This document shows, piece after piece, positions 15,611-64,000 of a stretch of 64,000 nt of DNA. This DNA comes from an uncultured Planctomycetales bacterium. GTDB taxonomy: Bacteria > Omnitrophota > Gorgyraeia > Zapsychrales > JANLHA01. A model generated the notes under the pieces. That model saw nothing but the letters and a program-made list of their open reading frames with translations, was not told the origin of the DNA and did not search any database. Positions within the stretch are counted from its first letter, which is position 1, and each line of letters opens with the position of its first letter. The stretch spans positions 1,262 through 65,261 of the forward strand of contig CAYVEC010000002.1 of the NCBI GenBank assembly GCA_964450385.1, read 5' to 3'. The translations under genes were made by a program, and so were the position numbers.

Positions 15611-16126
15611 TCAGTTCCTCAGGCTAATGAAAAACTCTGTCTGCCGGGTGATCGGCACCCCGGACACGGTCTTTTGCGCTGTGATATCGATCTCGATCAG
15701 ATCCGGTTCAGTCATCGACGGCGCGCACCCGAAAACCAGAATATCCGACGCCACGACCCGGGTGACGCCCCCTTCTGTCTTAAGCAGCTGATGGGTGCCG
15801 GCATCAAGGATAAAACGGATCTCGGCATCCTCACCGGCTGGCCACGTCTTAAGTCCAGAAATGAATTCTGGCTTTTTAAAAATCATCATCCCGTCCGCAA
15901 GAGTAATGACCCCGCCCTGCCCGGTCTCGCGTAACGTCCCGGTGATCCCGGTCACGGCCCGGCGGATCTCCTGCTGAAGCTCGATCCGCGTCCGGTTCGC
16001 GCTCCAGAAGCGCTGAGCGACATTCGAGGTCGCGGCCATCCCGCCGGCCAAAAAGAGAAAAATAAAAACAACGACCATGACCTCTGGCAAGGTCATGCCT
16101 TGAGTCCCTCGTCCTCGTGTCAGCAT
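15611..16126 (-). CDS. minor pilin (PilW-like) with class III signal peptide
   Basis: The prepilin cleavage motif is 'G|MTLPEVMVVV' with Glu at +5. I moved the start to the internal Met, which removes the overlap with the upstream gene. The ORF track runs to 16186. Confidence 0.6.
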   Translation of the reverse strand: MLTRGRGTQGMTLPEVMVVVFIFLFLAGGMAATSNVAQRFWSANRTRIELQQEIRRAVTGITGTLRETGQGGVITLADGMMIFKKPEFISGLKTWPAGEDAEIRFILDAGTHQLLKTEGGVTRVVASDILVFGCAPSMTEPDLIEIDITAQKTVSGVPITRQTEFFISLRN

Positions 16127-16160
16127 CCGGTGATCCATCCCCAACTCCCCTGCCTCTCCG

Positions 16161-16679
16161 TCAGCGCCGTGCCAAAACCGTCTCAATCGTGACCGGTGAA
16201 TCGATCAACAGATTGCCATTGATATCCTCGCCGTCCAAGGCGCCGTCCAAATTCTGGTCCTCGCCGACCACCCGGCCGTTGTGATTCCGCCAGCAGACCG
16301 CAACGCGGACCGCAAGGACCTCAAGGGGCTCTCCGTTAATAAGCTCCTCAACCGCACCGCTCGCTGCGACATGCGTGTTCACAACACGGACCGTGCCCAG
16401 GCCCTCGACCCCATCGAGCGGAAACGTCCGGCCATTATATGTTGAGATCAGCGTATCAAAATCAGCCTCGCGCATCTCCTCTATCAAGGCGTCAGCCGCG
16501 ATCAGCGCCGTCATTTTCTTCTCGGCCATGTCCCCGGCGGCCGCGATATAAAGATATCCCCGGATCAATCCCAAGATCACGACCGCAAGAATCGCAGCAA
16601 CAAAGATCACCTCGACGAGTGTAAACCCCCCCCTCGTCCGCCGGCCATGGCCCCATCTCTGACACAAACATTTTCTCAT
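16161..16679 (-). CDS. minor pilin (PilV-like) with class III signal peptide
   Basis: The 172-aa product has the motif 'G|FTLVEVIFVAAIL' with Glu+5. Confidence 0.6.
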   Translation of the reverse strand: MRKCLCQRWGHGRRTRGGFTLVEVIFVAAILAVVILGLIRGYLYIAAAGDMAEKKMTALIAADALIEEMREADFDTLISTYNGRTFPLDGVEGLGTVRVVNTHVAASGAVEELINGEPLEVLAVRVAVCWRNHNGRVVGEDQNLDGALDGEDINGNLLIDSPVTIETVLARR

Positions 16680-17488: not shown

Positions 17489-17926
17489 TTACGGAGCTGG
17501 TTCCGGCTCAGGTTCAGCAGCCGCAACCCTCTCCAAGATACCGCCTGTGGTGATGCTGAAAATAACATCATCAGCACCTTCGGGCTTGGTCACAAGCGTC
17601 GCCACGAATTCATAGGCAGCGTCTGTGGCCGTGGGCCAGGTATACTCAAACCCTGAGATTGTACCTTCGCCTACATACGCACGATTGAGATACGGCGGAT
17701 TGGCCTCCGTCAGATCCGCCAATGCTGTCGGATAATTGCCGTTGTGCGATGACGCATAGGTCTCGGCTGCGGTTGATAGTGTCCGCAGGGTGCTCTGCGC
17801 CAACGCCTCGTTGGCCGTCATCCTGGCTCGCAAGAGGTTCGGGATCGCAATGATCGCCAACAGCGCGATGATCGCGACCACGATCATAATCTCGACGAGC
17901 GTGAAACCACGTTGATACCTTCTCAT
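17489..17926 (-). CDS. pilA: type IVa major pilin PilA
   Basis: The short leader reads 'MRRYQRG|FTLVEIMIVVAIIALL' with Glu+5. A perfect SD 'AAGGAGGG' lies 5 nt upstream of this ATG. The ORF track extends to an upstream ATG at 17986. Confidence 0.82.
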   Translation of the reverse strand: MRRYQRGFTLVEIMIVVAIIALLAIIAIPNLLRARMTANEALAQSTLRTLSTAAETYASSHNGNYPTALADLTEANPPYLNRAYVGEGTISGFEYTWPTATDAAYEFVATLVTKPEGADDVIFSITTGGILERVAAAEPEPEPAP

Positions 17927-18422
17927 CTTTCCCTCCTTGTACGTTGACGTACGTTCTCCCCAACCTCCTGCCGCCTGGCCGGGCATTGCGTCGTCACGTG
18001 CCGAGAGAAAAAAGAAAAGATAACTACATTTATCCCGTCACCCAGACGCCTAATGCCTTAACCATTTGGCCCTAAAAGATTTACCAACTTTTGTATAATA
18101 TCACACAGACAGCGTGTGTCAATCGGTAAACCAAAAACTTCAGACAGAATAAAAAAACCCTATTCACAGGGTCAAATAGGGCACAGTTCCATTATATTAA
18201 AACTTCTTTATTAATGGCAACTGGCTGCCCCTATCCACGATAGTCGGGCCCTCTAGCTTTGTGTCCCATCCTTCCGAATGGTTTACCTTGAGCATTAAAC
18301 ACCTTTTTCAAAGAACGTTCTTCCGACACTACAAGTATAGTCTAGGCCTATCGCAAAAGTCAAGGGCACCAAAAGTAGCAAAAATATAATGATTTAAATA
18401 AAATTTGTAAAAAATGAAGGGA
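17927..18422 (-). promoter_or_regulatory. about 0.5 kb AT-rich non-coding leader and promoter region of pilA
   Basis: No credible ORF lies here and GC is clearly below the window average. A GGCACG-N5-GACGCAA element sits at about 17986-18003 on the minus strand. It resembles a sigma54 -24/-12 box but its spacing is 1 nt off consensus. Confidence 0.4.
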
Positions 18423-58777: not shown

Positions 58778-60052
58778 CTAAAGACTCTGGATCGCAAGGA
58801 GCAACTCCTGGGCGAGGCCTTCGTCCATCGACCCCAACATCTTCTGAACGCGCTCAGCCGAATGCCGGTCCCCCAATTTTAAATAGGCCATTCCCAACAG
58901 ATAGACGACTTTCGCGTCATCACCTTTTAACACGGCCACTGTCTTAAACGCCCTCACCGCGTCCTTAAACCGTCCGAGGGCCATTGCCGTTTCGCCAAGA
59001 ATGATCTGGGCCTCGATCTGCTGAGGGTCCAGCCGTACCGCAGTCCTCAATTTCTCGAGCGCACCCTCAGGGTCATCGAGATGCCGCGCAAGGATGCTCC
59101 CCCAACGAAAATACGAATAACTGTCCATCCATGAATTCTTGATCGCCCACTGGTAGGCCTCGCAGGCCGCGCGGTACTCACCAAAGGCCGCGTAGGCGTC
59201 ACCGAGATCCCGATAGGTCTGACTGTGGCTCGGCTGAATATGCGTGGCCTTCAAAAAATATTCCGCGGCCTCGCGCGCCGACCCCTCGGCCATGCATAAG
59301 GCGCCAAGATTATAGTTCGCCTCATAATGAATCGGATCTAGGGCCACGGTCTTCTGAAACGAGCCGCGGGCCGCCTGCCGGTCTTTGAGACGGAGATAGA
59401 TCAATCCCTGACGAAAATACAGGTCCGGGTTGTTCGGATCAACCGAAAGGGCCTTGCTTAAGGCGTCGAGCGCGTCGGAGAACCGCTCAAGCCTCATGTA
59501 CGCGACGCTCAGATCTCGGTAACGTTTGCCGTCAGCGATCGTGAGCTTCTTCTGAAGCGGCCTGGTCAAAAAGATCTGGAGCCTCAAACCCTCAAGGTCG
59601 ACCTTAAACTGCTTCCGGACCTCATAGAGGGTTAGGAACCCAATATATGTCACCGCGACGACAAAATGAAAATAGCGTTTAAAAAAATAATCGAGAAAGA
59701 GCGGATGGTTCACCTTGTCAACGACAAGATAGCCGAGCACCACGTTGTGGCAGATGATCAGGATAATGAACGCCGCCCGGGCGAACTTGTTCAGAAATAA
59801 TATCCCGAACCCGCAGAGCACCATCACCATCATCCACGAGACCGGGACAATCCAAAAACCGGAAAAATAGGTGTCAAACAGCTCTGCCGGGAACACCGCG
59901 GCCAACGAGAGCGCGTATCGGATCCCCTCGATGGTCCTCACCCAGCCGAACCGCGGCGAAAAGAACGGAGCGAAGAGGAGGATATTCGACACGACAACCG
60001 ACCATGCCAACCAGCAAATCCCTGGAGATCTTGTCTGAGGTTTATCGTTCAT
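58778..60052 (-). CDS. polytopic membrane protein with C-terminal TPR repeats
   Basis: It has about six TM segments. At least six TPR units follow, including 'AEYFLKATHIQPSHSQTYRDLGDAYAAFGEY...'. Confidence 0.5.
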   Translation of the reverse strand: MNDKPQTRSPGICWLAWSVVVSNILLFAPFFSPRFGWVRTIEGIRYALSLAAVFPAELFDTYFSGFWIVPVSWMMVMVLCGFGILFLNKFARAAFIILIICHNVVLGYLVVDKVNHPLFLDYFFKRYFHFVVAVTYIGFLTLYEVRKQFKVDLEGLRLQIFLTRPLQKKLTIADGKRYRDLSVAYMRLERFSDALDALSKALSVDPNNPDLYFRQGLIYLRLKDRQAARGSFQKTVALDPIHYEANYNLGALCMAEGSAREAAEYFLKATHIQPSHSQTYRDLGDAYAAFGEYRAACEAYQWAIKNSWMDSYSYFRWGSILARHLDDPEGALEKLRTAVRLDPQQIEAQIILGETAMALGRFKDAVRAFKTVAVLKGDDAKVVYLLGMAYLKLGDRHSAERVQKMLGSMDEGLAQELLLAIQSL

Positions 60053-60920
60053 GGTCTGCCTGCGATACTGGATGAATGATCTTATAAATCGCTGAATAAT
60101 CCTCTCCCTGCCACCCCTGCTCGGCTGCCGCTCTGAGCTGCCCGGCGATGGCCTCGACCATATCAACGGCCAGACCGCGCTCGCGCGCCTCGGTCACCAC
60201 AAGGCGGACATCTTTCATCATATGCTGAACAGGAAAATTCGGATCTGTAAAGTCCCGGCTAAGCATCCGCGGCAACTTCTTGTCAAAGGTCTCGGCATAA
60301 AGAACACTCGCCCTCAGGATCTCCATAAATCGATCCACATCGATGCCGTTCTCACGGACCATGCCGAGGCTCAACGAGAACGCCGCCGACAACGAAACAA
60401 TGAGCTGATTAAGCGCGAGCTTCACGGCCGCGGCAGATCCCACCGGACCGACATGAAAAAAATCTTTCCCGAACGCGGTCAGGACCGGCCGAAACCTCTC
60501 TGCCTGGGCCGCCGTCCCTCCAAACATGAGGATCAACCGGCCCGCGGCGACCTCGCCCCGGCTCCCGAGAACCGGGCACTCGCAATACGCGCCCCCGGCC
60601 TGCTCGATCCGACCCCCGAGCTCCCGACTCTCGCGCGGCAGGATCGTTCCCATCTGAATGACCGAGCGTCCAGACCATGCCTCATCGGTCAATGAGGACA
60701 AGGTCTGATTGATCGCCCCAAAATCCGTGAGCATGATCAAAATACATTCCCCATAGCCTACGGCTTCGTGAAGGGATCCGATGACACGGGCACCGGCCGA
60801 CCGCAACGACTCGGCCTTTGAGATATCCCGGTTATAGGCCGTGACTTCATGGCCGGCCTCGAGCAACCGCTCTGCCATGGGGAAACCCATCCGTCCTGTG
60901 CCCACCACCGTTATCCTCAT
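60042..60920 (-). CDS. NAD(P)-dependent 3-hydroxyisobutyrate dehydrogenase-family oxidoreductase
   Basis: It has the Rossmann motif 'ITVVGTGRMGFPMAERL'. A 6PGDH-type C-terminal domain follows. Confidence 0.75.
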   Translation of the reverse strand: MRITVVGTGRMGFPMAERLLEAGHEVTAYNRDISKAESLRSAGARVIGSLHEAVGYGECILIMLTDFGAINQTLSSLTDEAWSGRSVIQMGTILPRESRELGGRIEQAGGAYCECPVLGSRGEVAAGRLILMFGGTAAQAERFRPVLTAFGKDFFHVGPVGSAAAVKLALNQLIVSLSAAFSLSLGMVRENGIDVDRFMEILRASVLYAETFDKKLPRMLSRDFTDPNFPVQHMMKDVRLVVTEARERGLAVDMVEAIAGQLRAAAEQGWQGEDYSAIYKIIHPVSQADHER

Positions 60921-60978: not shown

Positions 60979-61476
60979 TTACTCAACTGGGGCCGACGGA
61001 GCAGGGCCCTTTTGATTTTTTGAAACGACCTCCTTGATCACATCGATGAGGACATCCGTCGCCACAGGTTTCGAGACATATTCAACAACGCCGTAGACCG
61101 AGGCAAGGGCCTCAGGATTCTTGCTCTCAGGGATCTCCCCCCGGTTCTTCACAAGCGATGTATTCGGCAGCCATTTAAACGAATCTGCTTTTTTATTATA
61201 AACCATCTCTCCCCGGCCGCTCACCATGATCACCGGGATACGGCGCGTTTCCTCCATCGCTTTCAGGGCGCGGACGATGTCCGCCCCCTTGCGCTGCGGC
61301 ATCACATTATCCAATAAAATGACCTGCGGGCACTCCCTGCGGGCCAGATCCTCAGCCTCAAGAGGATTCGTCGTAAAGACGACCTCAAATCCTCCGGTGC
61401 TCTCGAGATTCTCTTTGAGAACCGTGCAAAAATCCGCCTCATCGTCCACCATCATAACCTTGATCAATCCATCCAT
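60979..61476 (-). CDS. single-domain response regulator (receiver only)
   Basis: It has the acidic pocket 'MMVDDE', the phospho-acceptor in 'ILLDNVMP' and 'SKP'. About 25 extra residues sit in the alpha4 region. Confidence 0.72.
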   Translation of the reverse strand: MDGLIKVMMVDDEADFCTVLKENLESTGGFEVVFTTNPLEAEDLARRECPQVILLDNVMPQRKGADIVRALKAMEETRRIPVIMVSGRGEMVYNKKADSFKWLPNTSLVKNRGEIPESKNPEALASVYGVVEYVSKPVATDVLIDVIKEVVSKNQKGPAPSAPVE

Positions 61477-61569: not shown

Positions 61570-62595
61570 CTAGGAAGCTCTCTGGTCGCGGAGACGGTTG
61601 CCGATATGGTAGGCCGCGATACCAAAGGCGACGGAGGCGTTCAGCGAATTTTTCATGCCGTGCATCTTGATATCGATCGCATAATCAGCAAGCGGGATCA
61701 GCTCCTCGGAGATCCCCTCGACTTCATTCCCGACGACAAGGCAGACCGGTCCATGCGGCTCGTATTCATGATAATCCCGGCTTTGATCTGTTTGTTCCAA
61801 AAGGACGATCTGATAGCCTTCAGACTTAAGACGCGCGACGGTCGCGACCACATCTTTATCATACGCCCAGGGAACGGTCTGCTCCGCGCCAAGAGCCGTT
61901 TTATGGATCTCTGACTGGGGAGGAAATCCGGTGATCCCGCAGAGCCACACCTGAGCGAGCCCCGCACCGTCCGCCGTCCGAAAGACCGAACCGACATTGT
62001 GAAGGCTTCGAATATTATCCAGGACCACAACAAACGGCAGCCGCGGATGCTGATGCCGCGCCTGACGGGCCACGATCTCCTCGTGGGAAAGTTTCCGACG
62101 CGGCTTGCGACTTAATTTCTTAAAATGGAGTTTCGGCCAATGCTCTTCCGCCAGAATATAGCCGACACAGTTCGGGGACCCGCAGCGGCAGGGGTGGTCT
62201 TCATGGTTCTCGAAATCATAACCGTAGTTATAGGTGAGCTCTGTTCCCTTTTGAATATCCTTGAGCGCCACGATCCAGATGTGCCCCCGAACCAATTCGG
62301 CCTCACAGTTCGGAAGGCAGGCGTGATTGATGAAACGCGCCGTGTTATACGGGACATTGCCATCGAGATCATAACGTGCGTTCAAGGTAAAGATATAGAC
62401 CGCGCCCTTCGTCTTATCGTGACGATGCTGATGCAGCGGGATCTCGGCCCGGCGTTCTGATTCGGCCTTTGTGATCTTCTCGCCCACATACTCGATGACG
62501 CGCGTTCCCGCCGGAATATCCCGGCGCGCGACGACCCCGCGGCCATGGATCGGGGAATTCACAACCTTGATATACGGACTCCGTGTCGCCTGCAC
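61570..62595 (-). CDS. SET-domain protein methyltransferase fused to a SpoU/TrmH-type (SPOUT) RNA 2'-O-methyltransferase
   Basis: SET motifs are 'GRGVVARRDIPAGTRVIEYVGE', 'RFINHACLPNCEA' and 'ELTYNYGYDF'. The post-SET motif is 'CRCGSPNCVGY'. SPOUT motifs are 'NVGSVFRTADGAGL', 'LVVGNEVEGIS' and 'MKNSLNASVAFGIAAY'. Confidence 0.7.
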   Translation of the reverse strand: MQATRSPYIKVVNSPIHGRGVVARRDIPAGTRVIEYVGEKITKAESERRAEIPLHQHRHDKTKGAVYIFTLNARYDLDGNVPYNTARFINHACLPNCEAELVRGHIWIVALKDIQKGTELTYNYGYDFENHEDHPCRCGSPNCVGYILAEEHWPKLHFKKLSRKPRRKLSHEEIVARQARHQHPRLPFVVVLDNIRSLHNVGSVFRTADGAGLAQVWLCGITGFPPQSEIHKTALGAEQTVPWAYDKDVVATVARLKSEGYQIVLLEQTDQSRDYHEYEPHGPVCLVVGNEVEGISEELIPLADYAIDIKMHGMKNSLNASVAFGIAAYHIGNRLRDQRAS

Positions 62596-62703
62596 CTCGC
62601 CCCCCTCTGTTGTTCAAATATTGGGATTATACCAGAAATCCGACTGGAAAAAAGATGTATCGTTGAGACCGCGCCGGGCCGTCCCCTGTGTTATAATAAC
62701 ACC

Positions 62704-64000
62704 ATGCGTCGAATCCTTCTGATCACGAGCATTGTTCTAGCCATCCTCGTAGCGGCTATCGCTGGAGGGATCGTCTATGTCCGCAGGGTCCTGGTCCCGG
62801 TAACGCTCAAGACCGCGCTCATCGAACGCCTGACAACCGCCCTCGGCCGCCCCGTACGCCTCGACCGTATCGATTATGCCTGGACCACAGGACTCACGAT
62901 CGAACAACTCCATATCGCGCAGGCGCCAGAGGACGCATCCCCTCTCATCGTCATCCCGACGCTCACATGCCGGCCGCTTCTCATCCCGCTCATCATCACA
63001 AAAAAGATCATCATCCCCTCGCTGACCCTGAGCGGGCCCGAGGTCTCCCTGATCAAAAAGGAGGACGGACGCTGGGGGATTGAGACCATCATGCAGTCTA
63101 AAGGCGGCACGCCATCAGCGATCGCCATCGGAAAGATCTTGATCCATGATGGAACCCTCTCGGTCAAAGACCGCTCGGGCGCAATCCAAGACGTCTCCCT
63201 CAATGCGGTCACAGCGGAGATCTCCCTGTCGTCCCTAACGAGCGCGCGTTTCTCGCTGACCGGCACCTATAATAACAACCCCTCCTCAACGATTGCCCTC
63301 TCGGGATCATGTCACATCACAAAAAGAATTCTCAATCTCACAACAGCGCGGGTCGCCAATATCGACCTCGCCCCTTCGATCATCCCGTTCTTAAATCTCT
63401 CATCCATGGTCAAGGCCGCCTCAATCACAGCAGCAGATACGTCCTTCTCCATTGACAAACAAAAGATCACGATGACCGGCTCTCTCTCGGGGGCTCTCCA
63501 TCTCACAATCCCTGGTCTCACCCTCATTCATCAAGAGCTGTCCCTGACCGATATCGATGGCCACTATGAACCCCAGGCCTGGGACATCGCCGCCGCTGCT
63601 GTCACAAGCCGCGGCTGGACAATACACCATCCGTCCGTCAATATCGATGGCACAGCGATCAACCTCCACCAAATCTCCCTTGTCAAAAAAGGCTCGGGTT
63701 ATACCCTGAACCTCCCCACAGCCTCGGCCGAAGGGCTGACCGTTCACCTCAAGGATCAGACCCTCACCGCACATTTTGTCCGCAGCCAGAATGCCCGACT
63801 TAACATGAACAGCGGCGATCTGAAGCTCACAGGTGGATTCGAATGTAAAAATATCTCACTCCCTCTCAACAGGGGTTCTGTCTCGGGCAACATTGCCGTG
63901 CCGGCGCTCGATCTGACCCGCGACCAGGACGTGCTTACGGTCAAAACAAACGGCGAGGCAACCGGCATCAGCACCGATATTCCCGGAAAAATCACCCTTA
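62704..64000 (+). CDS. AsmA-family/DUF748-like envelope protein (5' part, continues past window end)
   Basis: The reading frame stays open from the ATG at 62704 to the window edge. It has an N-terminal TM anchor 'ILLITSIVLAILVAAIAGGIVYV'. Repetitive beta-rich sequence then follows. Confidence 0.5.
   Translation, partial: MRRILLITSIVLAILVAAIAGGIVYVRRVLVPVTLKTALIERLTTALGRPVRLDRIDYAWTTGLTIEQLHIAQAPEDASPLIVIPTLTCRPLLIPLIITKKIIIPSLTLSGPEVSLIKKEDGRWGIETIMQSKGGTPSAIAIGKILIHDGTLSVKDRSGAIQDVSLNAVTAEISLSSLTSARFSLTGTYNNNPSSTIALSGSCHITKRILNLTTARVANIDLAPSIIPFLNLSSMVKAASITAADTSFSIDKQKITMTGSLSGALHLTIPGLTLIHQELSLTDIDGHYEPQAWDIAAAAVTSRGWTIHHPSVNIDGTAINLHQISLVKKGSGYTLNLPTASAEGLTVHLKDQTLTAHFVRSQNARLNMNSGDLKLTGGFECKNISLPLNRGSVSGNIAVPALDLTRDQDVLTVKTNGEATGISTDIPGKITL

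Follow-up and report, generated by a model that had tools for sequence, protein, structure and literature searches.

A fusion of a SET domain to a SpoU-type RNA methyltransferase

We describe a gene that joins a SET domain, the fold of protein-lysine methyltransferases, to a SpoU/TrmH-type SPOUT RNA methyltransferase domain within one open reading frame (ORF). It lies on the minus strand of a 64,000-nucleotide stretch of DNA, referred to below as the window, that covers positions 1,262 to 65,261 of contig CAYVEC010000002.1 (assembly GCA_964450385.1), deposited as from an uncultured Planctomycetales bacterium and placed by GTDB in the phylum Omnitrophota. Judged from its sequence and its recurrence, the gene is almost certainly a genuine S-adenosylmethionine (SAM)-dependent bifunctional methyltransferase fusion of Candidatus Omnitrophota. 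An earlier note on this DNA, made from the letters alone, had proposed that both methyltransferase modules are complete. This was borne out by the Pfam comparison that it had suggested, in which the SET family (PF00856) matched amino acids 18-125 over profile positions 1-105 of 105 with 90.6 bits against a cut-off of 22.4, and SpoU_methylase (PF00588) matched amino acids 188-329 over profile positions 2-142 of 142 with 118.5 bits against a cut-off of 29.7. Both scores are far above the cut-offs and the motifs of both halves are intact.

The earlier note had also warned that a frameshift or assembly error might be joining two separate genes. Related genomes do hold the two genes as separate neighbours and a sequencing indel could mimic a fusion in one metagenome-assembled genome (MAG), but a frameshift, a chimeric assembly or an error in gene calling was ruled out by the recurrence of the fusion and the conservation of its junction, which leave such an artefact a negligible probability. 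A search of 5.8 billion proteins returned an identical protein (100%, P0001), encoded on a 131.9-kb NCBI contig. SET and SpoU were also united in one ORF in at least 18 other 90%-identity clusters, which were 63-77% identical and 341-345 amino acids long. These diverged clusters were drawn from NCBI, JGI, ENA and Logan assemblies, that is, from independent samples and projects, and those carrying a name were all Candidatus Omnitrophota. The fusion was likewise a single ORF in five GTDB species representatives (L014-L018), the fused clade was monophyletic by either half, and the GC content at the three codon positions (63/40/65%) was coding-like along the whole ORF. No second SET or SpoU copy was found within the window.

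The junction between the halves consists of the C-terminal helix of the SET family, EEHWPKLHFKKLSRKP, followed by the N-terminal helix of the SpoU family, RRKLSHEEIVARQ..., which correspond to residues 150-163 and 171-180 in an AlphaFold2 (AF2) model of the protein. The basic stretch KKLSRKPRRKL that the earlier note had read as a linker is thus present, but it is made of the two families' own helices and is not a neutral spacer. Among the 18 fusions compared, the ancestral SpoU start position is always occupied by Arg or Lys, P165 is invariant, the length of the junction is fixed and no start codon lies within it. Since the spoU start codon has been lost, the fusion is obligate. The mean pairwise identity over the 18 fusions was 74% for the SET half, 62% for the junction and 70% for the SpoU half, and this similar constraint on both halves, together with the fixed junction, indicated that both are under purifying selection as parts of an obligate fusion.

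The SET half

The SET half contains the motifs IHGRG, NHACLPNC and ELTYNY and the post-SET motif CRCGSPNC, so that the pseudoknot motifs (NHxCxPN and ELTxxY) and the Cys-rich post-SET reported in the earlier note were all found in the sequence. The SAM pocket is marked by H17/G20, and the other key residues are N90-H91-x-C93 and, within ELTYNY, Y122/Y124. The residues of these motifs are conserved without exception in the 18 fusions (H17, G20, N90, H91, C93, N96, E119, Y122 and Y124), and the zinc cluster (C93 plus C136xC138x4C143) is complete and invariant both in these and in the other fusion types described below. A non-catalytic, binding-only SET domain was ruled out by this invariance of every SAM-pocket, catalytic and zinc residue.

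The closest PDB sequences were KMT2A-D, NSD1-3, ASH1L and SETD2 (E about 1e-24 to 1e-17, 35-39% identity), with KMT2A and NSD2 at the top (E about 1e-24). The structure prediction suggested in the earlier note gave halves that each superpose on a solved counterpart; for the SET half this was the SET domain of MLL3 (5F6K/7W6L; template modelling (TM) score normalized to the target 0.78, root mean square deviation 1.8-2.0 A, 38-39% identity). The domain thus appears to be a complete and catalytically competent SET plus post-SET module of the KMT2/NSD-like type. The model of the LegAS4/AnkI effectors was matched with 22.7 bits against a cut-off of 550, and Pfam detected no ankyrin domain. Weak Pfam matches to SAF and PRDM2_PR were discarded, given that they overlap the SET beta-clip, that the PRDM2_PR match is below its cut-off and that no SAF stretch passes alone.

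The SpoU half

All three TrmH motifs named in the earlier note were recovered in the SPOUT domain by Pfam and by reading the motifs: NVGSVFRTADGAG (motif 1, with N200 and the catalytic R206), LVVGNEVEGIS (motif 2, G289-N-E291) and IKMHGMKNSLNASVAFGI (motif 3, S317-L-N319). The residues N200, R206, G289, E291, S317, L318 and N319 are invariant in the 18 fusions. The best PDB sequence matches were to TrmH (1ZJR from Aquifex, E 5.6e-19; 1V2X from Thermus; 7EDC), ahead of RlmB, and the alignments to 1ZJR and 1V2X span all motifs. In a Foldseek comparison of the AF2 model of this half, the target-normalized TM-score was 0.71 for 1ZJR, 0.72 for 1V2X and 0.82-0.86 for the methyltransferase domain of TARBP1. 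The equivalog model for the thiostrepton/nosiheptide-resistance enzymes NshR/TsnR was clearly failed (28.6 bits, cut-off 425).

Origin of the fusion within Omnitrophota

In some Omnitrophota genomes the two genes are unlinked. A stand-alone SET gene (about 190 amino acids, about 60% identical to the SET half) then lies beside two-component genes (L001, L010), and a stand-alone spoU gene (about 190-205 amino acids, 63-65% identical to the SpoU half) lies in the block adh_short-spoU-acylphosphatase-metallophosphatase-ligA (L007, L013). Given that the unlinked spoU orthologues occupy this other conserved neighbourhood, spoU was moved next to SET. In five species (L027, L029, L037, L044 and L060), including Ca. 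Aceula lacicola of the phylum Omnitrophota (L037), spoU is a distinct gene that comes directly after SET on the same strand; the gap is 29 nucleotides in L027, and the SET frame extends past the spoU start in L037, L044 and L060. The idea that SET and spoU are permanent neighbours was thus ruled out in part, the genes being unlinked in several Omnitrophota and their adjacency a derived intermediate.

The N-terminus of stand-alone and adjacent SpoU proteins, M/V-(R/K)KL(S/T)H(Q/P)E(I/L)..., matches the sequence RRKLSHEEIV that follows the junction in the fusion, and the C-terminus of stand-alone SET proteins (...EEHWPKLK and a basic tail) is the same sequence that precedes the junction. Since the junction matches the termini of both neighbours, a small indel in the overlap of the frames would suffice to fuse them. 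In neighbour-joining trees (distance trees without support values) the fused SET domains formed one clade and the fused SpoU domains another, and 4/5 adjacent-state SETs (L027/L029, L037/L044) belonged to the clade that is sister to the fused SETs. GAPDH lies just upstream both in the adjacent-state locus L029 and in the fused loci L015/L017. The monophyly of both fused halves, the sister position of most adjacent SETs and the common neighbours point to one fusion event, inside a pre-existing operon in which SET preceded spoU. One "stand-alone" SpoU nested in the fused clade (P0023) was not used as evidence, since its contig measures 1.9 kb and the protein may be part of a broken fusion. Among the best 150 matches of an exhaustive HMMER search over 1.84 billion representatives, no further protein aligned with both halves, indicating that the SET-SpoU fusion is restricted to a single clade of Omnitrophota.

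The same SET family is joined to other enzymes

A genome scan traced the SET family, with identities of 48-70%, to Omnitrophota, Verrucomicrobiota and Zixibacteria and, among the DPANN archaea, to Woese-, Pace- and Nanoarchaeota; over these groups the family is highly conserved, at about 45-60% identity. The titles "uncultured Planctomycetales" and "uncultured Methanosarcinales" look coarse or unreliable and were not used for this distribution; they stand on many third-party MAG records with Omnitrophota-like or DPANN-like versions of these genes (L015, L018, L019, L021-L026, L029, L044, L055, L058, L060 and L093).

Two of the other fusions involve RNA-modification enzymes. An N-terminal SET domain is joined to MnmA, the tRNA 2-thiouridine-34 synthase, in at least 11 clusters of 40-76% identity (P0135 and a subset of P0304-P0323; one such protein is MBS3086321.1), the named members of which are Pacearchaeota and Nanoarchaeota, and this number of diverged clusters ruled out that SET-MnmA is a one-off artefact, as a 90% cluster with a single member might suggest. 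At least 15 clusters of 61-75% identity, the named members of which are Verrucomicrobiota, carry the SET domain at the C-terminus of RsmH, the 16S rRNA m4C1402 methyltransferase (P0215, P0423-P0436); a 537-amino-acid ORF in L068 was rejected as a further case because it is without rsmH similarity. In eight species representatives (L010, L037, L039, L044, L066, L073, L078 and L084) the gene queH (epoxyqueuosine reductase, PF02677, 206 bits) precedes SET on the same strand at a distance of one to three genes, and in L037 and L044 it is the immediate upstream neighbour. The Pacearchaeota locus L067 has SET (633-1073) followed by a separate mnmA gene, in parallel to the state in which SET is followed by spoU. 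Every SET architecture, including those with other partners (see below), keeps H17, G20, N90, H91, C93, E119, Y124 and the three post-SET Cys residues, and only position 122 varies (Y/F/W).

Proposed function

We propose that the SPOUT half forms a homodimer, as is usual for SpoU/TrmH-type SPOUT enzymes, and would 2'-O-methylate RNA. From its closest relatives the target would most likely be G18 of tRNA, as for TrmH, the alternative being an rRNA ribose. The SET half would methylate a lysine of a protein associated with the translation or RNA-modification machinery, with ribosomal proteins, translation factors and other RNA-bound proteins as candidates, and the fusion would bring the two activities, at a constant ratio, to shared ribonucleoprotein substrates. 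That the enzyme is bifunctional with the SET half acting on such a protein is, in our judgement, somewhat better than an even chance. The SET substrate is placed in this machinery because a TrmH-like SpoU, MnmA and RsmH, three unrelated RNA-modification enzymes, have each acquired a member of one SET family, independently and in three phyla, and because of the synteny with queH and mnmA; this triple capture plus synteny suggests a link to translation in the manner of a Rosetta-stone argument. It lends indirect support to the suggestion of the earlier note that the target might be a ribosomal or other RNA-binding protein, whereas the coupling of lysine methylation to ribose methylation that the note also put forward is a hypothesis. 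The same kind of reasoning from gene context has been applied to bacterial JmjC proteins of the MINA/NO66 type, encoded beside mnmA and a pseudouridine synthase (PMC2938197). The RNA targets of the three SET partners differ (tRNA D-loop, tRNA wobble base and 16S P-site), and their common denominator is the translation apparatus, not one RNA site. As for the JmjC proteins, later work on YcfD, their representative in E. coli, identified it as a hydroxylase of ribosomal protein L16.

Several observations weigh against this proposal. The SpoU half failed the TrmH equivalog (NF008295, NCBIfam; 80.3 bits, cut-off 227), and we therefore call it TrmH-like and not TrmH. It also failed the RlmB equivalogs TIGR00186 (98 vs 160 bits) and NF008386 (59.7 vs 366 bits), the RlmB model being matched by its catalytic C-terminal part only (87-237 of 240), with SET and not an L30e-like domain at the N-terminus of the window protein. 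Because the cut-offs for both TrmH and RlmB were failed, Gm18 specificity is a best guess only. The AF2 model of the whole fusion had a mean predicted local distance difference test (pLDDT) of 92.1 and a predicted TM-score (pTM) of 0.68, and this pTM beside a pLDDT of 92 suggests that the domains have no fixed interface. The commonest neighbours of stand-alone Omnitrophota SET genes are two-component genes and not RNA enzymes. The SET family is also joined to partners with no RNA-modification role: to CinA in Opitutaceae/Verrucomicrobiia (29 members in one cluster, P0137, plus L081 and L086), to Ham1 in Verrucomicrobiota (3 members, P0242), to a flavodoxin-like domain (P0081, P0092, P0098, P0099 and P0124) and to itself in tandems in Zixibacteria and Ignavibacteria (P0019-21, P0121, L047, L054, L056 and L059). 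Since such partners occur too, the fusion partner may merely be whichever gene adjoins.

These points make a neutral fusion of neighbouring genes a serious rival, according to which SET and spoU became overlapping neighbours, a small indel joined them and their jobs are unrelated, with no common target and no coupling. It stays viable because of the origin from overlapping neighbours and the existence of the non-RNA partners. The overlapping or closely spaced frames of the five adjacent-state loci would ease joining in one step, the partners of the SET domain are very different from each other, SpoU has been joined to HPPK as well (227 sequences, P0243), and the pTM is what loosely tethered domains would give. 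On the other hand, spoU left a conserved housekeeping neighbourhood to reach SET, the adjacency is kept in lineages that are apart in the SpoU tree, and the fusion is held at a fixed junction length down to about 63% identity. In addition, about 3/7 partner types are RNA-modification enzymes, which by inference rather than by a formal test is far above their share of the genome. Weighing these, we consider a neutral fusion possible but unlikely.

The proposed translation link also has a more far-reaching version, to which we give little credence, in which the SET family is a dedicated component of RNA modification rather than an enzyme of the chromatin or effector type and, in its stronger form, acts on an amine presented on an RNA particle rather than on a free protein lysine. 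One speculative candidate would be a modified nucleoside with a primary amine, such as nm5(s2)U34 with its aminomethyl group, in keeping with the fusion to MnmA; another, equally speculative, would be a lysine of a ribosomal protein or factor that is methylated only while this is bound beside the ribose or base that the fused partner modifies. If this were true, SET-SpoU, SET-MnmA and RsmH-SET would be versions of one two-step machine acting on an RNA and its neighbour, and translation, not chromatin, would be the ancestral setting of KMT2/NSD-like SET domains.

Gene neighbourhood

The features of the locus are listed in Table 1. Scans for promoters and terminators around it gave nothing above chance expectation.

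Table 1. Features of the fusion gene and its neighbours in the window.
Feature	Position in window	Strand	Basis
Whole fusion gene, 341 aa, GTG start, stop 61570-61572	61570..62595	-	Sequence reading, ORF list, Pfam
SET plus post-SET module, aa 1-149	62149..62595	-	Pfam, PDB sequence matches, AF2 model vs MLL3 SET
Junction, aa 150-185	62041..62148	-	Comparison with stand-alone proteins and adjacent-gene loci
SpoU/TrmH-type SPOUT catalytic domain, aa 186-341	61573..62040	-	Pfam, PDB sequence matches, Foldseek
Shine-Dalgarno-like purine run GAGGGGGG, 5-12 nt 5' of the GTG start	62600..62607	-	Read from sequence
Single-domain response regulator, 93 nt downstream of the fusion	60979..61476	-	Pfam PF00072, 60.4 bits
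3-hydroxyisobutyrate/6-phosphogluconate dehydrogenase-like NAD-binding protein, conserved downstream neighbour	60042..60920	-	Pfam
Membrane-anchored TPR protein, conserved downstream neighbour	58778..60166	-	Pfam TPR families
AsmA/DUF748-family gene, divergent, cut off by the end of the window; bounds the locus upstream	62704..64000	+	Pfam AsmA/DUF748

The single-domain response regulator that the earlier note had placed directly downstream of the fusion was confirmed by its PF00072 score. Of the 111 positions of the receiver profile it matches only 1-88, after which additional residues precede the conserved "SKP". A response regulator is found at the same position in L004/L014, L016 and L018 and is thus conserved in part of the fused clade, but its being an obligatory partner of the fusion is not supported, since none adjoins the fusion in L015 or occurs in any of the five adjacent-state loci. 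In L015 the fusion is followed by a homologue of the dehydrogenase, in L018 by a gene of similar size to it, and the same TPR family occurs near SET in eight loci, including L014, L015, L016 and L018. On the upstream side, an AsmA-family gene of 1050 amino acids is at the same position in L004, genes of 1050-1051 amino acids take that position in L014 and L016, and in the latter two loci Ham1 is located three genes upstream of the fusion.

The listed TTG start of the TPR ORF overlaps the dehydrogenase gene by 125 nucleotides, and TPR homologues (e.g. L015, 12158-13441) start near the equivalent of an ATG at about 60052. By this comparison the TPR gene is probably shorter than listed, with its true start near that ATG.

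Response regulators were enriched beside SET genes (14/135 flanking genes against a background of 17/652, or 2.6%; Fisher p = 2e-4, uncorrected for shared ancestry). The enrichment was confined to Omnitrophota and the response regulators were always on the same strand as SET. Three arrangements with two-component genes were seen: hybrid kinase, response regulator and SET; SET, low-molecular-weight phosphatase, OmpR-type response regulator and kinase; and SET-SpoU, one or two single-domain response regulators and TPR. Two-component genes lie beside SET in the window and in L001, L010, L014, L016, L018, L020-21, L030-34, L039, L042-43, L048, L050, L063, L066, L073, L078 and L084, and a HisKA fragment is located immediately upstream of SET in L029.

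These neighbours could mean that the SET half serves signalling or the nucleoid by methylating the neighbouring response regulator, another two-component protein or, like the chlamydial and Methanosarcina SET enzymes, a basic DNA-binding protein, with SpoU as a passenger. The enrichment in its three same-strand arrangements, the HisKA fragment and the response regulator that follows the fusion in the window would fit this explanation, as would the basic C-terminal tail of stand-alone SET proteins. We consider it improbable given that the enrichment may reflect shared ancestry within a single phylum, that the adjacent-state loci have no response regulator next door, that the SET genes of DPANN archaea and Verrucomicrobiota are without such neighbours, and that the MnmA, RsmH and SpoU fusions would be left unexplained.

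Elsewhere in the window a full-length c-di-GMP-I riboswitch (Rfam RF01051, 58.9 bits) was found at 18213-18297 on the minus strand, upstream of a run of minus-strand genes. Three genes downstream of it (17489-17986, 16161-16679 and 15611-16186, minus strand) encode the prokaryotic N-terminal methylation motif of type IV pilin-like proteins, which suggests that a pilus or pseudopilus operon may be under c-di-GMP control.

Novelty and significance

SET and SpoU are textbook families; their combination is apparently undescribed in the literature searched. Full-text searches for fusions of SET to SpoU, TrmH, MnmA or RsmH, and for Omnitrophota together with SET, found no description, and a 2014 review of bacterial SET proteins makes no mention of fusions to RNA enzymes (PMC3980110). 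The earlier note's impression that the architecture had not been described therefore holds for the searchable literature but not for the databases, where such proteins are deposited as "TrmH family RNA methyltransferase" (HRZ40301.1, MFP4472389.1 and MEW5895454.1), and an unpublished database listing of the SET-SpoU architecture likely exists. The sister fusions are deposited under the name of the partner only ("MnmA", "RsmH"), while some SET-MnmA proteins are named only SET. The SET fusions thus expose an annotation gap in which proteins are named after the partner domain only.

What SET enzymes natively do in free-living bacteria and archaea has long been asked, the characterised cases being host-directed effectors or nucleoid-protein methylases. 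The pattern of SET fusions over three phyla turns this question into an experiment on one protein. If the translation link is true, protein methylation tied to the ribosome or to tRNA would be a further level of modification in phyla about which little is known, and the link would bear on the origin of the eukaryotic KMT2/NSD-type SET domains. If it fails, the locus still provides a clean case of a staged gene fusion, in which the unlinked, overlapping-neighbour and obligately fused states are all present in extant genomes.

Comparison with known systems

A search of PDB folds returned no chain covering both the SET and the SpoU domain. The eukaryotic KMT2 (MLL1-4), NSD, ASH1 and SETD2 enzymes have the SAM pocket, the catalytic Tyr and the NHxC plus CxCx4C zinc cluster in common with the window SET domain (35-39% identity over about 145 residues). 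The window domain differs in being minimal (150 amino acids), without pre-SET/AWS, WRAD-type partners or chromatin readers, and in belonging to a prokaryotic SET family with a histone-less bacterium as host. The prokaryote-encoded SET proteins Chlamydia NUE/cpnSET, Legionella LegAS4/RomA, Bacillus anthracis BaSET, Burkholderia BtSET and Methanosarcina Go1-SET (PMC3980110; PMC2904774) are, like the window SET, small SET-domain lysine methyltransferases. These characterised proteins either are effectors secreted to modify the histones of a host or methylate nucleoid proteins, whereas the window SET has no ankyrin or secretion features and has an RNA methyltransferase attached.

TrmH (1ZJR, 1V2X, 7EDC) and the SpoU half have the SPOUT/SpoU domain, the three motifs and the catalytic Arg in common, and both are minimal, with a basic N-terminal helix followed by the catalytic domain and without the L30e-type RNA-binding domain that the RlmB-type rRNA enzymes possess. 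The identity to TrmH over the Foldseek alignments is only 27-29% and the substrate is a predicted one, and a whole SET domain is placed on the SpoU N-terminus, whereas the N-terminal region of TrmH serves tRNA binding.

For the activity proposed here, the functional precedents are the yeast SET enzymes Rkm1-4, which methylate ribosomal proteins, and Efm1, which methylates eEF1A (PMC11248248, PMC4023394). They would be of the same functional class as the window SET, acting on ribosomal proteins or elongation factors and not on histones, but they are eukaryotic and of another SET subfamily (Rubisco-LSMT-like). We know of no case in which one of them is fused to an RNA-modifying enzyme. The nearest relatives in architecture are the sister fusions SET-MnmA, RsmH-SET, SET-CinA, SET-Ham1 and SET-SET, which each recur in independent contigs, have the same SET family (39-59% identity to the window SET) with its active site intact and differ from SET-SpoU in partner enzyme and phylum and, in the RsmH fusion, in the C-terminal position of the SET domain.

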